Assembly: GCF_030528405.1 (NCBI RefSeq) | Contig: NZ_JAUMYY010000001.1 | Location: 10,840-74,839, forward strand | DNA: 64,000 nt | Source: Fusobacterium sp. | GTDB taxonomy: Bacteria > Fusobacteriota > Fusobacteriia > Fusobacteriales > Fusobacteriaceae | Direction of reading: 5' to 3' | Shown here: positions 3,907 to 44,475 of the stretch, in pieces | How positions within the stretch are numbered: position 1 is the stretch's first letter | Layout of the letters: each line of letters begins with the position of its first letter | Program-made: the position numbers and the translations under genes | The notes under the pieces: generated by a model | The model's input: the letters and a program-made list of their open reading frames with translations, nothing else | What the model was told of the DNA's origin: nothing | Database searches by the model: none

Positions 3907-4470
3907 ATGTTAAAAAAATTTATATTTTTTCTAGCTTGGATAGGAATACTAATTTTGTCTGTGTTAGGAATTAATTTCATACTTTTTCCAGATGAATATA
4001 TTTTTAGAATTCCAATCTTAACTAGACTTTCAATCTTTGAATTAAAAATTATATTCCTTTCTATATGTGTGATATATTTATTTTTAGTTTTATATAAATT
4101 TATTTCCCTTTTTGAGAGAAAAAAAGAATATGAAAAAGTTACAGCAAATGGTGTTGTGAAAATTTCAAATACAACTATTAATAATTATGTATTAGATTTA
4201 TTAAAGAAGGATAATGAAATATCTAATATAAAAGTTAGCAGTGAAAGAAAGGGGAAAAAGTTCTATATTTATGTTAAATTCCAAATTTTAGAGCAATTAA
4301 ATGTAACTAATAAAATAGTTGCTGTTCAAAATTTAATTAAAGAAGAATTAAATAATAATATAGGTATAGAAGTTAAAGAAGTAATAGTTAATGTATCAGG
4401 TCTATCTATTCAACAAAATAAATTTAAGGATAGTTACAGTGATAACAGCAACGATACAGAGGTGATCTAG
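3907..4470 (+). CDS. AmaP-like membrane anchor protein (Asp23-associated)
   Basis: N-terminal TM helices followed by a soluble domain, positioned immediately after asp23 as in the asp23/amaP modules of Firmicutes. Confidence 0.55.
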   Translation: MLKKFIFFLAWIGILILSVLGINFILFPDEYIFRIPILTRLSIFELKIIFLSICVIYLFLVLYKFISLFERKKEYEKVTANGVVKISNTTINNYVLDLLKKDNEISNIKVSSERKGKKFYIYVKFQILEQLNVTNKIVAVQNLIKEELNNNIGIEVKEVIVNVSGLSIQQNKFKDSYSDNSNDTEVI

Positions 4471-12851: not shown

Positions 12852-13953
12852 ATGGATATATTAGAATTAAAAAGAGAGTATGATGAAATAAAAGATAAAA
12901 TTGAAAATATTAGGAGGTCTCTTTGACCTAGATAGGAGAAATCAAACTATTAAAGACTTGGAAGCTTTAACTATGGAAGACGGCTTTTGGGGAGATAAAA
13001 GAAAAAGTTCTGAAATAATAAAAAATATAAATTTTGAAAAAAATATAATTGAAAAATATAATTCTTTGGTTTCTGAAAGAGATGAAGAGGAAGTTTTAAT
13101 TGATTTTGTTGAAAGTGGAGAAGAAAGTTTTAAAGATGAACTTTTTCAAAAACATAAATTTTTAAAAAAAGATACAGAAAATTTTGAGATAGCTTTATTG
13201 CTAGATGGAGAATACGATGGAGTTTCTGCAATAGTTACTATACATTCAGGAGCAGGTGGAACGGAAGCCTGTGATTGGGCAGATATGCTGTATAGAATGT
13301 ATGCTAGGTGGTGTAATTCCAAAAATTATAAAGTTTCAGAACTTGATTACCTAGCTGGTGATGGAGCAGGTCTAAAATCTGTTACATTTTTAGTTGAAGG
13401 TATAAATGCATATGGTTATTTAAAAACAGAAAAAGGTGTACATAGACTTGTAAGAATTTCACCTTTTGATGCGAATAAAAAAAGACACACTTCTTTTGCT
13501 TCAGTGGAAGTAATGCCAGAGGTAAATGATGATGTAGAAGTTGAAATAAATCCAGCTGATATTAGAATAGATACTTATCGTGCAAGTGGTGCAGGAGGAC
13601 AACATGTTAATATGACTGATTCAGCAGTTAGAATAACACATTTTCCAACGGGTATAGTTGTAACTTGTCAAAAAGAGAGATCTCAACTTAATAATAGAGA
13701 AACTGCAATGAAACTTTTAAAATCTAAACTATTAGAAATTGAAATGAAAAAGAAAGAAGAAGAACTCAAAAAAATTCAAGGCGAACAAACGGATATAGGT
13801 TGGGGAAATCAAATAAGATCCTATGTATTTCAACCTTATGCTTTGGTTAAAGATCATCGTACAAATACAGAAATTGGAAATGTAAGAGCTGTTATGGATG
13901 GGGATATTGATGAATTTATAAATTCCTATCTAAGATTTTTAAAACAGAAGTAA
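12852..13953 (+). CDS. prfB: peptide chain release factor 2, translated with a programmed +1 frameshift at CTT TGA C
   Basis: frame-0 ORF from ATG 12852 ends at an in-frame TGA at 12924-12926 inside the canonical CUU UGA C site, preceded by an internal SD AGGAGG; the +1 frame continues through the GGQ motif (GAGGQHVNMTDSAVRITH). Confidence 0.9.
12921..12927 (+). promoter_or_regulatory. prfB autoregulatory +1 frameshift site (CTTTGAC)
   Basis: CTT-TGA-C with an SD-like AGGAGG 3 nt upstream. Confidence 0.85.
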
Positions 13954-40018: not shown

Positions 40019-40840
40019 ATGTCTGAGATAAAATTTAGATATAATAAGTATTCTGAAACTATGCTATATTTTATGGTTATTTCAGGTGTAATTTTAGGTT
40101 TTTTAATCTATACTATAATTATTTATTACTCTGGAATTATTAAAGGTCCAGAATATTTACCTCTATATTTGAAAAAATATAAAAAGTATGTCATATACCT
40201 AATATTTGGCTTAATTCCAATTTGTATGTTAGTACCTACTTACTTAGTAGCTAAGTATTGGGGGAGCAAAGAAGAAGAAGGAAGTATTAAACTTTATGAT
40301 GATTTTGCAATCTTGTATTGGGATGGACAAGAAATAAAAATTAATAAGGGGGAATTGAGTATCAAATTTATGTCGCCTCGCTTGCAGTGGTATGTACTTT
40401 ATATAATAAAGACACAAAAGAGGAAAATAAAATTATGTAGCTCTGTTATTGAATGGAAAGAGGATAAAGGCAATAGATTTGCTCTATCACTTGATATTGC
40501 AATGGATAAGCTTATGTATTATGAAAAAGGTGCAAAAATGAAAGAGCTGGAAGAAACTTTAGTTCATTTTTATGAATTGGAGATATTAATTGGAATAAGT
40601 ACTCCTGAGATTTTTGAAAATACTCAATATTATGTTGATTATGACAGTGTAGTTACTATACCTGAGGGAAGATTTGCCACTTGTTTAATAAGAGAAAGGG
40701 GAAATCTTATTCATGTGGTAGGAGATTTAGGAATTGATATAAGTTTATTGAGAATTGATCAGCTAAATGAAGAAAATTTAAAAAAACAAGTTATTACTGG
40801 AGTAATTGAATTGGATGAACAGGTAGACTTATATAATTAG
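40019..40840 (+). CDS. membrane protein with 2 TM helices plus a ~190-aa C-terminal soluble domain, unknown function
   Basis: strong SD AAGGAG; TM helices at residues ~15-37 and ~57-80. Confidence 0.5.
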   Translation: MSEIKFRYNKYSETMLYFMVISGVILGFLIYTIIIYYSGIIKGPEYLPLYLKKYKKYVIYLIFGLIPICMLVPTYLVAKYWGSKEEEGSIKLYDDFAILYWDGQEIKINKGELSIKFMSPRLQWYVLYIIKTQKRKIKLCSSVIEWKEDKGNRFALSLDIAMDKLMYYEKGAKMKELEETLVHFYELEILIGISTPEIFENTQYYVDYDSVVTIPEGRFATCLIRERGNLIHVVGDLGIDISLLRIDQLNEENLKKQVITGVIELDEQVDLYN

Positions 40841-40879: not shown

Positions 40880-41743
40880 ATGAAAAAAAATGAAAAGCTT
40901 GGCTTATGGACTTTAGTTATATGGAATCTAACAATATTTGGAATTTTAACAGTCTTATTTATAAAACTTTTATTAAGATTTGAGAGCAAAGCTTTGGTTG
41001 CTCAAGAAGAATATATTATTCTTGCTATGATAGGAATATTTATTATAGTAACTATAAAACCTACATTTAATAATATAAAAAAACTTTATCTACATTATAA
41101 AGTGGATATAAATGAAGAAGAAAACAAAGAAATATTTATATATGACTATGCATTTATGAAGATGTATCAAAAACTTAGTTTAAGAAGGATGTTTTTATCA
41201 ATAATGATACCTTTTTTATTTGTTTTTACTTCCATAGTAATAATTTATGTTTCTCTTTTTTCAAGTGGAGCATATTCCATAAGAGAAGCATTTAATTTTT
41301 GGGAGCCAGCATTTTCAATTATTCCGAAGAGAACTTTAATACTTGTTATTGCTGGGGCTCTTTTTTTGTTTTTTAAGATTTATTCAGGACAAAAATATAA
41401 GGAAAAGCTTCTTTTTAAAATTTATGATACGGCAACAGAGGAAGAAATAAAAATTTTAGATAGTATAGAGGAGAAGAAGTATAGTTATGTATTTACAAAA
41501 GAATTTTTAATAAATTGGGATGGAACTTTAAATATTATCCCATTAAAAGAGATAAAGGAGATAAAATATGTAAAATACTTTTATTTTCTAATATATGGTA
41601 TAAGATTGAGGATTAAAGCTAATAAAAAATATATAATTTGGGTTCATGGACCTTCTGAAGATGAATGGATAAAAAGAGGATTTTTATCAGCTGATAAAAG
41701 AACTGGAAAAAGTGTAAGTATGGATATAAATCTTTTTATATAG
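40880..41743 (+). CDS. membrane protein with 4 TM helices plus a C-terminal soluble domain, unknown function (possible bacterial-PH-like)
   Basis: strong SD AGGAGG; shares a WDG-containing block with the preceding protein. Confidence 0.5.
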   Translation: MKKNEKLGLWTLVIWNLTIFGILTVLFIKLLLRFESKALVAQEEYIILAMIGIFIIVTIKPTFNNIKKLYLHYKVDINEEENKEIFIYDYAFMKMYQKLSLRRMFLSIMIPFLFVFTSIVIIYVSLFSSGAYSIREAFNFWEPAFSIIPKRTLILVIAGALFLFFKIYSGQKYKEKLLFKIYDTATEEEIKILDSIEEKKYSYVFTKEFLINWDGTLNIIPLKEIKEIKYVKYFYFLIYGIRLRIKANKKYIIWVHGPSEDEWIKRGFLSADKRTGKSVSMDINLFI

Positions 41744-41922
41744 AATTAAGAAAAAATTTTTGTAATGTAATAAAAATATTTTATTTTTAAAACTAAAAAA
41801 TGTTAAAATTTAATACATAAAACTATTGCGTTTTTATTAATATTATATTACACTATAATGGTTGATTTTAAAGATGTAATTATTTTTAAAATTAAAATCA
41901 TTTTATTTTTTGGGGGGATTTT

Positions 41923-43758
41923 GTGAAAAAAAATTTTAGATTTTTAATGTGTGTATTACTAATTTTTTATGGTAAACAATTATTTGCAGACAAATATCAG
42001 TTAGGTGATGGAAGTGTAGCACATTCAGATAAAAGTATTGCAATAGGTCAAAGCTATAAAGAAATAGATTATGACGGAGATGAAATTATTAGAAAAAATG
42101 AAGCAGGAAATCCTGAAAAATCAACTGAAAAACTTTATGCAACAGCTGTAGGAACAGCAAATAAAGCAAACAATAACTTAAGTGTTGCTGTTGGAAATTT
42201 CAATACATCAACTGGCAATGAAAGTATGACTTTTGGTAGAGGGAATATTTCAAGTGGAAATTACAGTCAATCTTTTGGTTCTTATAATACTTCAGAAGGA
42301 GGTTTCGCTTCAACTTTTGGTTTTAAAAATACTGCAAAGGGTGCGAACAGTCAAACTTTTGGTTCTTATAATACTTCAGAAGGAAATTATAGTTTAATAT
42401 TTGGGTTAGAGAACCACACTAAAGGAGGATCTAGCACGGCATTTGGTAGAAATAATGAAACATACTCGCTATTTAGTGATGCTTTTGGAAGTAATAATAC
42501 TGTAAAAAAAATGTCTGATATAGCTTTTGGTAGTGGAAATATTGCAGAAGGGGGAGGAAGCTCAGCTTTTGGATCTGGAAACAAAGCAAGAGGTTCTGTT
42601 AGTACAGCTTTTGGTACTTGGAATGAAACTAATGAATATCTTAGTATAGGTTTTGGTCATAGAAATACAGTGGATGGAGAAAAGAGTATAGCTACTGGAG
42701 GACAACTTTATATTTCAGGTAAAAATTCAGGAGCTTTTGGTAGAGGAGAGTATAATTTTCAAGCTCTGCAATATGACGATAAAGAAAACTATAAATATAG
42801 AATAGAAGGAGATAATTCATGGGTTGTGGGTGCTCATAATAATATTTCTAAAGATACTACAGATAATTTTATATTTGGGAATAAAAATGCTATAAGTGGT
42901 AATTTTTCAATGGCTATGGGATATGGAAATATAGTTTCAGGAGAAAAATCAACAGCAGTTGGATATAAAAATGAAGTTAGTGGAAATAATTCAGGAGCCT
43001 TTGGAGATCCAAACAAGGTAACAGGACACCGTTCTTATGCCTTTGGGAATGATAACAATATAGCAGGCAATGATAATTTTGTAATGGGTTCCAATGTAAA
43101 TATAGCAGCTGGAATAGCAAATTCAGTAGCGCTTGGTAATAATTCAGCAGTGTCATCTTCTAATGAAGTTTCGGTAGGTTCAAGCACAATTAAAAGAAAG
43201 GTAACTAATGTTGCCGATGGAGAAATTTCTGAAACATCAACAGATGCTATAAATGGAAGTCAACTTTATAAGGCTATGCAAGATAATAATGTAATTGGAG
43301 ATTTAAGAGTTGATTTAGGAAATTTAAAATCAGAAGTAAATCATGTTGGATCACTTAGTGCTGCTCTATCAGCTCTACATCCTATGCAATATGACCCTCA
43401 AGCACCAAATCAAATAATGGCAGGCTTTGGTCACTATAGAAATAAGCAATCTATAGCAGTTGGTATGAGTCACTATTTCAGTGAAAATGTATTAATGACA
43501 GCAGGGCTTGCAATAGGCAGCGAAAGAAGAGTAAAGACTATGGCCAATATAGGTCTAGCTTGGAAGTTAGGTAAGGGAGGTTCTACGTCTGCAACTAATA
43601 CACCTACCTATATAGTACAAGATGAAATGAATAGACTTACAAAAGAAAATAATCAGTTAAAATCAATAGTAAATTCACAAAATGATAAGCTTGTAAAACA
43701 GGATGAAAGAATAAAAAATTTGGAAGAAAAACTTGAATTATTAATAAAAAATAAATAA
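41923..43758 (+). CDS. YadA-type trimeric autotransporter adhesin with a C-terminal coiled-coil extension
   Basis: signal peptide; degenerate head repeats (SxAFGxxNxAxG, repeated about 15 times); neck and stalk; YadA anchor (LSAALSALHP...MAGFGHYRNKQSIAVGMSHYF...GLAW); then ~60 extra residues with heptad periodicity ending in K. GTG start preceded by G6 and followed by A8. Confidence 0.8.
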   Translation: MKKNFRFLMCVLLIFYGKQLFADKYQLGDGSVAHSDKSIAIGQSYKEIDYDGDEIIRKNEAGNPEKSTEKLYATAVGTANKANNNLSVAVGNFNTSTGNESMTFGRGNISSGNYSQSFGSYNTSEGGFASTFGFKNTAKGANSQTFGSYNTSEGNYSLIFGLENHTKGGSSTAFGRNNETYSLFSDAFGSNNTVKKMSDIAFGSGNIAEGGGSSAFGSGNKARGSVSTAFGTWNETNEYLSIGFGHRNTVDGEKSIATGGQLYISGKNSGAFGRGEYNFQALQYDDKENYKYRIEGDNSWVVGAHNNISKDTTDNFIFGNKNAISGNFSMAMGYGNIVSGEKSTAVGYKNEVSGNNSGAFGDPNKVTGHRSYAFGNDNNIAGNDNFVMGSNVNIAAGIANSVALGNNSAVSSSNEVSVGSSTIKRKVTNVADGEISETSTDAINGSQLYKAMQDNNVIGDLRVDLGNLKSEVNHVGSLSAALSALHPMQYDPQAPNQIMAGFGHYRNKQSIAVGMSHYFSENVLMTAGLAIGSERRVKTMANIGLAWKLGKGGSTSATNTPTYIVQDEMNRLTKENNQLKSIVNSQNDKLVKQDERIKNLEEKLELLIKNK

Positions 43759-43886: not shown

Positions 43887-43944
43887 GAACAAAATATGTA
43901 ATTAATTTTTAAAATGCTAATTTGGAAAATATTTGGGAGAAAAA

Positions 43945-44475
43945 ATGGAGATATTTACTTATCAAATAGAACTAATTAGAAAAATGGGCTTTGGGAATTG
44001 GATTAAAACATATCCTGTAAACCCGATTACTATAGTTTTGACAGTTGTAATTATTGGCTTTATAGTTCTGATAGTTAATGCAAACACTAAAAAGAAAAAT
44101 GCTGAAAGAAACAAGGTTGAGGGAGCAGCTCTGCTTATACTAAAAAAACAAAATTCATTTAACAATAATTTTGCTGAACAGATAAGAGTAGTGGAAATAA
44201 ATGGAGAAAAAGCTCAATGGTTTTTTTATAAGACAAGACCAGCTGTTTATCTAAAACCTGGGAAAAATGAATTAATAGTTTATGCAGAGTGGGCTCAAAG
44301 TATAAAAAGAATAATTAAGACTGCACCTAGAAAAATAGAGTTAAGTGTCGATTATGATTCAGTATATACTATCTATTATAAAATAGAAATAGATCAGTAC
44401 CTGCTTTATAAAGGTGATGAGTATGAAGATAAAAAATGGGAAGAAAAACTTTCTAGTTATAATATTGTAAGTTAA
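43945..44475 (+). CDS. single-pass membrane protein with a C-terminal beta-rich domain, unknown function
   Basis: TM helix at residues ~28-50 (numbered from the 43933 ORF); start ATG 43945 preferred, with SD GGGAG. Confidence 0.45.
   Translation: MEIFTYQIELIRKMGFGNWIKTYPVNPITIVLTVVIIGFIVLIVNANTKKKNAERNKVEGAALLILKKQNSFNNNFAEQIRVVEINGEKAQWFFYKTRPAVYLKPGKNELIVYAEWAQSIKRIIKTAPRKIELSVDYDSVYTIYYKIEIDQYLLYKGDEYEDKKWEEKLSSYNIVS

Follow-up and report, generated by a model that had tools for sequence, protein, structure and literature searches.

The adhesin gene and its extension beyond the membrane anchor

The DNA examined here (hereafter the window) is a stretch of 64,000 nucleotides from Fusobacterium sp. 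(contig NZ_JAUMYY010000001.1, positions 10,840 to 74,839 of the forward strand) with a GC content of about 28%. At 41923..43758 on its forward strand lies a gene for a 611-residue trimeric autotransporter adhesin (TAA) that resembles CbpF of Fusobacterium nucleatum, and in which 64 residues follow the beta-barrel membrane anchor. The open reading frame (ORF) appears in the ORF list as the preliminary description of this DNA had claimed, starting with GTG and including its stop codon. Its features, in window coordinates, are as follows.

41912..41918 (+): strong Shine-Dalgarno sequence GGGGGGA, 5 nt before the GTG start (sequence reading)
41923..43758 (+): CbpF-like trimeric autotransporter adhesin, type Vc, 611 aa, complete gene (Pfam, PDB 9gh4)
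41923..41988 (+): short Sec-type signal peptide, residues 1-22 (MKKNFRFLMCVLLIFYGKQLFA; by inspection of the translation)
41989..43197 (+): passenger of left-handed beta-roll/YadA-head repeats, residues 23-425 (Pfam, NCBIfam, PDB)
43198..43308 (+): YadA_stalk (neck/stalk), residues 426-462 (Pfam PF05662, E 1.9e-10)
43384..43563 (+): YadA membrane anchor, residues 488-547, four beta-strands, the last ending ...MANIGLAW (Pfam PF03895, AF2, Foldseek)
43564..43608 (+): flexible, putatively periplasmic linker, residues 548-562 (KLGKGGSTSATNTPT), rich in G, S and T (AF2 pLDDT <50, sequence)
43609..43755 (+): putatively periplasmic coiled-coil helix, residues 563-611, starting Y-I-V-Q-D-E and ending ...LLIKNK (heptads, AF2, CbpF alignment)

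The anchor, its fold, the head and stalk modules and the signal peptide together identify the protein as a type Vc TAA. In the signal peptide (MKKNFRFLMCVLLIFYGKQLFA/D, with the slash at the cleavage site) a basic n-region is followed by a hydrophobic core, and small residues mark the cleavage site. By inspection it has no extended signal peptide region, which fits the published absence of such a region from the TAAs of Fusobacteriia (bioRxiv 10.64898/2026.01.22.700529). Within the passenger, Pfam matches to YadA_head (PF05658) and to the LbR_Ice_bind beta-roll (PF21300) fall at residues 294-368, and NCBIfam matches to Ata and YadA cover residues 34-161 and 326-454. The same region matches the CbpF passenger structure 9u93 (E 3e-39), and a UspA1 structure is also matched.

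The best sequence match in the PDB is CbpF itself (FN1499; 9gh4/9gh5), at E 2e-76, and the aligned region takes in the anchor and the entire tail. CbpF, which binds CEACAM1 and CEACAM5 (PDB 9gh4, 9gh5, 9u93), shares with the window protein a short signal peptide, a beta-roll head, a stalk, a YadA anchor, a GKG-rich linker and a coiled-coil tail, which in CbpF ends ...LLKNK; anchor and tail align end to end. The proteins differ in length (479 aa in CbpF and 611 aa here, the head of the window protein being longer) and are only moderately identical overall. Among full-length proteins the nearest are YadA-like proteins of Fusobacterium russii, with 49-55% identity; an exact look-up of the window protein in public assemblies returned no record. 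Judged by its sequence, the window protein is a CbpF-family paralogue with a longer beta-roll head. In CbpF the barrel has been predicted to span V378-L431 and the C-terminus is K479; a StrepII tag at this C-terminus is tolerated in E. coli, and the protein migrates as a trimer of more than 150 kDa (PMC12012533).

The YadA_anchor family PF03895 matches over its entire length (model positions 1-60 of 60, E 4e-15, 56 bits against a cutoff of 22.7) and its last position falls on W547, so that none of the model extends into the residues beyond. The earlier claim that the anchor ends well short of the C-terminus and is followed by about 60 further residues thus stands; we count 64 (KLGKGGSTSATNTPTYIVQDEMNRLTKENNQLKSIVNSQNDKLVKQDERIKNLEEKLELLIKNK), the last of which is Lys. 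The contrast with classical TAAs is also as had been proposed. YadA, Hia, NadA and UspA1 are built from the same modules (head, stalk and anchor), and their anchors share the four-strand fold, but they terminate at the last strand with an aromatic residue (...GYQW), and the equivalent Trp of the window protein, W547, is internal. The proteobacterial TAAs that we retrieved, from Neisseria, Haemophilus, Glaesserella and Moraxella, end ...GYQW, ...GYHW or ...ALQW and are all without a tail.

The tail comprises a linker of about 15 residues and a single 48-residue helix, with Lys as the final residue (...IKNK). From about Y563 onwards a single heptad register continues to the end, with M, N, V, L, I and L (followed by K611) at the a positions and V, L, L, Q, Q, L and L at the d positions. 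The heptads had been likened to those of trimeric coiled coils; the unbroken register bears out the periodicity, although the pattern of beta-branched residues or Asn at a and Leu at d is not specific to trimers. An AF2 model, computed for the monomer from an alignment of 33 sequences, places a pore helix just upstream of the anchor, followed by four strands, the linker and the tail helix (H38-64, E77-86, E89-99, E104-113 and E119-128 in the numbering of the modelled segment, up to the last strand). The helix is unbroken from Y563 to N610 with pLDDT values of 84-93 in its middle, and only the linker is of low confidence (pLDDT <50 at segment residues 133-144); the tail is thus predicted to be a helix, as had been anticipated, and not a disordered extension. 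The only significant Foldseek matches to this model are the TAA anchors of Hia (3emo, 2gr7), AtaA (9vnj) and YadA (2lme), and all of these structures stop at the barrel.

In the Hia and YadA anchors each monomer contributes four strands and the C-terminus faces the periplasm. Because the C-terminus is periplasmic in this topology, a tail attached to it should lie in the periplasm, and the proposed location of the C-terminus is well founded in that respect. Attachment to a trimeric barrel likewise suggests that the tail itself is trimeric.

Conservation and distribution of the tail

Post-anchor domains of this kind are not new. Extra domains beyond the TAA anchor were first noted by Béchon in 2020, including in Synergistetes and Fusobacteria (PMC7549365), and a 2026 survey of TAAs by Dorison et al. 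found a periplasmic domain in 62% of those of Fusobacteriia and 99.8% of those of Negativicutes (bioRxiv 10.64898/2026.01.22.700529). The short periplasmic domains, with fewer than 100 residues, are long coiled coils (bioRxiv 10.64898/2026.01.22.700529), and outside the Proteobacteria they occur in Fusobacteriia, Negativicutes, Synergistia and some Cyanobacteria (Béchon 2020; Dorison 2026). The window tail has the published characteristics of these short domains, in that it extends more than 10 residues past the barrel, is shorter than 100 residues in total and consists mainly of one coiled-coil helix. The structural part of the preliminary description, in which a periplasmic coiled coil is added beyond the anchor, is supported, yet it had already been published for Fusobacteria and Negativicutes, and the window protein is one more CbpF-family adhesin carrying a short periplasmic domain. 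Two points can be added to these accounts: in Fusobacterium tails the final residue is invariably Lys, whereas in Veillonella it is poorly conserved, and a helix-start motif, GPISS-Y-x-h-Q-D/N-E, is common to Fusobacteria and Negativicutes.

We surveyed homologues in a set of 1.84 billion representatives clustered at 50% identity and considered the 149 best matches that have an anchor. Of these, 146 have a tail of 30 residues or more, and the median length is 66 aa. The closest relatives of segment residues 420-611 are all from Fusobacterium and nearly all have the tail, and it is present in every one of 119 full-length Fusobacterium homologues, which include proteins of F. russii, F. vincentii, F. 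animalis, F. nucleatum and F. necrophorum.

This breadth of conservation bears on the idea that the tail arose through read-through, a frameshift or an assembly error, to which we assign a negligible probability. The frame stays open up to a normal TAA stop codon, protein-level conservation of the tail extends over hundreds of independent assemblies and complete genomes, and the tail was part of the CbpF construct (FN1499, residues S24-K479) that has been expressed and purified. Nothing was found in favor of an artefact, and the one oddity is a pair of 146-aa database proteins (P0063/P0064) in which the stalk is joined straight to the tail with no anchor between them. A read-through or frameshift origin was rejected because of the conservation of the tail, including its retention in those 146 diverse representatives.

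The pair P0063/P0064 is nevertheless unusual in its own right. The stalk (…NGSQLYKAMQ…) is fused to a tail about 75% identical to that of the window protein (…TNTPTYIMQDEVERLSKENHHLKS…FIKNK) and the whole beta-barrel anchor is gone; these proteins may be products of deletion or recombination, or assembly artefacts.

Tail lengths fall into classes seven residues apart, at 49, 56, 63, 70 and 77 residues or, with another definition of the boundary, at 57, 64, 71 and 78. Insertions and deletions of whole heptads are a signature of coiled coils, and the seven-residue steps are as expected for one. The tail of CbpF (…KLGKGSGVTYDETPQYVVQNEVKRLTVENQELKERVRNLEEKLNMLLKNK) is exactly 14 residues, or two heptads, shorter than that of the window protein. 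Within the genus Fusobacterium the range is 41-78 residues (41, 57, 64, 71, 78), and paralogues in one genome can differ, with 71 and 54 residues in F. watanabei (loci L001/L003) and 64 and 71 residues in Fusobacterium sp. oral taxon C10 (loci L004/L005). These differences between paralogues are insertions of whole heptads in mid-coil, with both ends conserved. More generally the ends of the coil, namely the helix-start motif and a C-terminal block I-K-N-L-E-E-K-L-x-x-L-L-K-x-K, are conserved above the middle, which is where heptads have been inserted or deleted.

The helix-start motif can be written Y-x-h-(Q/E)-x-(E/K/Q), usually Y-V/I-M/V-Q-D/N-E, and is present in 100 of 141 diverse tails, 15-29 residues past the barrel; GPISS precedes it in 88 of the 141. 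A longer form, R-Y-K-x-G-P-I-S-S-x-Y-V-M-Q-D-E, is common to Fusobacterium and Negativicutes tails (P0083-P0229, loci L006-L062). This sequence similarity suggests a common origin of the periplasmic domains of the two groups, a matter that could not be resolved by phylogeny (Dorison 2026, bioRxiv 10.64898/2026.01.22.700529). A phmmer search with the tail against all ORFs of the window and of the Fusobacterium loci returned TAAs only, with no other type of protein carrying it.

Veillonella TAAs carry either coils or SLH domains at this position. Among betaproteobacteria, a TAA of Mesosutterella porci (locus L052, match 4001-4351) has a 57-residue, Ala/Leu-rich helical tail after its anchor (…LKAQFAALSSRNEALLARFEEAGGGRDSK). 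This is one of the rare proteobacterial periplasmic domains, and it may have been acquired by horizontal transfer or have arisen by convergence.

Possible roles of the coil and of its terminal lysine

We consider it probable that the window protein is a CbpF-like type Vc TAA whose barrel carries a short periplasmic coiled-coil domain with a mainly structural, stabilizing role. The outer-membrane barrel would have 12 strands, four from each chain, and each chain would continue below it as a flexible linker of about 15 residues and an amphipathic helix some 48 residues, or roughly 7 nm, in length. Since three copies hang from one barrel, the tails would presumably zip up as a coiled coil of three strands immediately beneath the outer membrane. 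Such a coil could clamp the three chains together on their periplasmic face, either while the BAM machinery (with BamA but no BamD in these organisms) assembles the protein or afterwards, and could shield the periplasm-exposed C-terminus from proteolysis, so that without it degradation would proceed from the C-terminus.

The proposed function is drawn from experiments on homologous domains in Veillonella parvula. There, full or partial deletion of the VtaA coil, or full deletion of those of VtaE and VtaF, leads to loss of function and to degradation that is apparently from the C-terminus (bioRxiv 10.64898/2026.01.22.700529), and a link between such coils and the BamD-less BAM machinery has been suggested by Dorison et al. 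(bioRxiv 10.64898/2026.01.22.700529). By analogy, the tail of the window protein would stabilize the adhesin. VtaA, VtaE and VtaF resemble it in having a heptad helix of fewer than 100 residues after the anchor, in the motif at the start of this helix (Y-V-M-Q-D-E) and in belonging to a non-proteobacterial diderm. They differ in that they belong to another phylum, share about 30-40% identity in anchor and tail, and have varied tail-end residues where Fusobacterium tails always have Lys.

Several observations weigh against a stabilizing role or leave it incomplete. The AF2 model is of the monomer, so that the trimer is inferred, and a core with Asn, Val and Ile at a and with Leu and Gln at d does not single out trimers. 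In the cryo-electron microscopy study of CbpF all of the protein beyond G274 is unresolved and the tail is not discussed (PMC12012533). The deletion and degradation data come from Veillonella tails only. Proteobacterial TAAs are stable without any such domain, and the mechanism of stabilization is not understood (bioRxiv 10.64898/2026.01.22.700529). Finally, a role in stability leaves the invariant terminal Lys of the Fusobacterium tails unexplained.

The conservation of both ends of the coil raises a different prospect, that the Lys-rich coil end or the helix-start motif docks non-covalently on a periplasmic partner and so guides assembly or positions the adhesin. Candidate partners would be the POTRA domains of BamA, an OmpA-domain protein or, electrostatically, peptidoglycan. 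Conservation above that of mid-coil is seen both in the C-terminal block and in the motif next to the barrel, GPISS-Y-x-h-Q-D/N-E (88-100 of 141 tails). Periplasmic domains are not freely swappable between adhesins in V. parvula, and an interaction with BamA in bacteria that lack BamD has been proposed by Dorison et al. (both bioRxiv 10.64898/2026.01.22.700529). However, no partner gene adjoins the adhesin gene, its neighbors being either without a Pfam family or genes for a flavodoxin and MutS2; Pfam and NCBIfam identify no binding domain in the protein; and no new helper proteins were reported by Dorison et al. (bioRxiv 10.64898/2026.01.22.700529). On balance we regard docking as unlikely.

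The terminal Lys is also the starting point for the suggestion, made in the preliminary description, that the adhesin tethers itself to the cell wall in the manner of Braun's lipoprotein (Lpp) of E. coli. The coil would then be a spacer, and a YkuD-type L,D-transpeptidase would join the terminal Lys, by its epsilon-amino group, to position 3 of the stem peptide (meso-lanthionine), so that adhesin and outer membrane would be stapled to the wall in a genus without Braun's lipoprotein. The window tail and Lpp are alike in having a periplasmic helix of similar length (48 and about 56 residues) with a C-terminal Lys, and both hang from the outer membrane, where the window tail would be trimeric; its helix of about 7 nm plus linker is of Lpp's order of size. 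However, the window protein has no sequence homology to Lpp, no lipobox and no lipid anchor, its membrane anchor being the beta-barrel; the length of window-type tails varies across paralogues; and a covalent link to peptidoglycan is hypothetical here. Taking both sides of the evidence into account, we find a tether of this kind improbable.

Within Fusobacterium the conservation of the Lys is striking. It terminates 47 of 50 unique tails, the highest conservation in the last 18 positions (the best core Leu reaches 88%), and all 119 full-length homologues, which represent 40 unique tails. The invariance extends to the divergent ends of F. russii (...LLEKK, ...LLKKK) and F. necrophorum (...EAIKK). 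Across the wider family it breaks down: Lys ends 76 of 141 diverse tails (54%), and the others end in R (15), M (10), L (8), Q (7), N (6), G (5) or S (5). The last residue of Veillonella coils is G, M, A, I, L, R or K, and poor conservation of the final residue has been described (bioRxiv 10.64898/2026.01.22.700529).

The background frequency of Lys in the window also has to be considered. Lys makes up 10% of residues overall and is the last residue of 21 of 53 window ORFs of at least 150 aa and of 20 of 44 of at least 200 aa. With 40-45% of window ORFs ending in Lys, a terminal Lys is by itself no signature, and this strong C-terminal bias touches any argument built on the residue. The frequency elsewhere is different, as ORFs ending in Lys number 5 of 29 in the flanks of other Fusobacterium loci and 6 of 47 in Veillonella loci. 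AT-rich background alone does not account for conservation of the Lys in 119 of 119 homologues in the genus. Simpler accounts of the residue may be found in shared ancestry, the C-terminal Lys bias, a positive charge capping the end of the helix or avoidance of tail-specific proteases. For the invariance in particular, shared ancestry, capping of the helix dipole and protease avoidance would all be simpler than cross-linking.

The setting is compatible with a covalent tether. F. nucleatum has no lpp gene (PMC12826042), the sole tether reported in Fusobacteria is the OmpA-type domain (bioRxiv 10.64898/2026.01.22.700529), and two L,D-transpeptidases (Q8RFF3 and Q8RF13) are predicted in F. nucleatum by in-silico annotation only (PMC10326533). 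A literature search for peptidoglycan-bound proteins, 3-3 cross-links and characterized L,D-transpeptidases in Fusobacterium yielded in-silico annotation only. Besides Lpp, OutB of Dickeya dadantii (...KK) and Lpg1810 of Legionella pneumophila (...TK) are known to be attached to peptidoglycan through a C-terminal Lys (PMC12729407). There is also precedent among the TAAs, as some of those in Streptobacillus and Negativicutes bear genuine peptidoglycan-binding domains (OmpA and SLH, respectively) in the same post-barrel position, with a short coil before the domain. In the AtaA-TpgA system the likeness lies in the anchor, whose fold matches the AtaA transmembrane domain 9vnj. The window protein differs from these in having no SLH, OmpA or LysM domain according to Pfam and NCBIfam, and no TpgA- or SadB-like gene lies nearby.

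Other observations argue more directly against an Lpp-like tether. A tail that can have anything from 41 to 78 residues in the genus, and that varies within single genomes, is unlike a spacer of defined length. No Lpp family is found among the Pfam and NCBIfam matches even at E values up to 1, the protein has no L-x-x-C lipobox (its signal peptide ends ...QLFA/D), and the window contains no L,D-transpeptidase gene. In V. parvula the VtaA coil gives no peptidoglycan-dependent localization; grafted onto VtaG, it abolishes that conferred by the SLH domain, from which Dorison et al. conclude that the coils do not bind peptidoglycan (bioRxiv 10.64898/2026.01.22.700529). An Lpp-like cross-link is thus chemically possible in the genus, with the conservation of the Lys as its one positive support, and as a reading of the sequence we would give it only a slim chance. 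That CbpF-type adhesins as a group covalently fasten both themselves and the outer membrane to the wall through this Lys, and so resist the pulling forces of adhesion, seems to us slightly less probable still.

If the Lys were linked to peptidoglycan, a cancer-associated genus without Lpp would have a covalent tether of a new class for its outer membrane, with the functional analogue of Lpp forming part of an adhesin, and it would be clear how CbpF-type adhesins bear mechanical load.

A further resemblance was noted for the tail. Residues 559-607 (window 43597-43743) give an NCBIfam match to NF041845 ('FAD-I family') that is weak and below threshold (16 bits, where the cutoff is 35; E 0.009) and spans profile positions 63-107 of 111. 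FAD-I is a small lipoprotein encoded in the operon of the RadD autotransporter adhesin, and the FAD-I paper makes no mention of a coiled coil or of peptidoglycan. The match probably reflects the compositional similarity of coiled coils, although a small outer-membrane lipoprotein with a C-terminal coil, as FAD-I might be, would itself be Lpp-like.

Genomic surroundings

The window is ordinary chromosomal core with housekeeping functions. It includes genes for DnaE, a Mg-chelatase-like ATPase, Hsp33, TatD, prfB, PGK, GAPDH and heme biosynthesis, together with a TRAP transporter, MutS2, IspD, CysS, MreB, NusA, IF-2, RecJ, trigger factor and ClpP/ClpX. The adhesin gene is flanked by a flavodoxin gene and by three ORFs for hydrophobic, membrane-protein-like products, none of which matches a Pfam family:

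40019-40840 (+): hydrophobic membrane-protein-like ORF
40880-41743 (+): hydrophobic membrane-protein-like ORF
43933-44475 (+): hydrophobic membrane-protein-like ORF

Across the whole window we found no TpgA, SadB, OmpA, Pal or YkuD gene that could act as a helper or tether, and no second autotransporter. A terminator scan returned no intrinsic terminator after the adhesin gene.

Elsewhere in the window, prfB, encoding release factor 2 (12852-13953, +), has a classical site for programmed +1 frameshifting. From the ATG at 12852 the frame runs through a Shine-Dalgarno-like AGGAGG to TCT CTT TGA C, whose in-frame TGA lies at 12924-12926, and the ORF for the PCRF and RF-1 domains continues in the +1 frame. 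Frameshifting in prfB is well known, and an annotation pipeline would split or truncate the gene.

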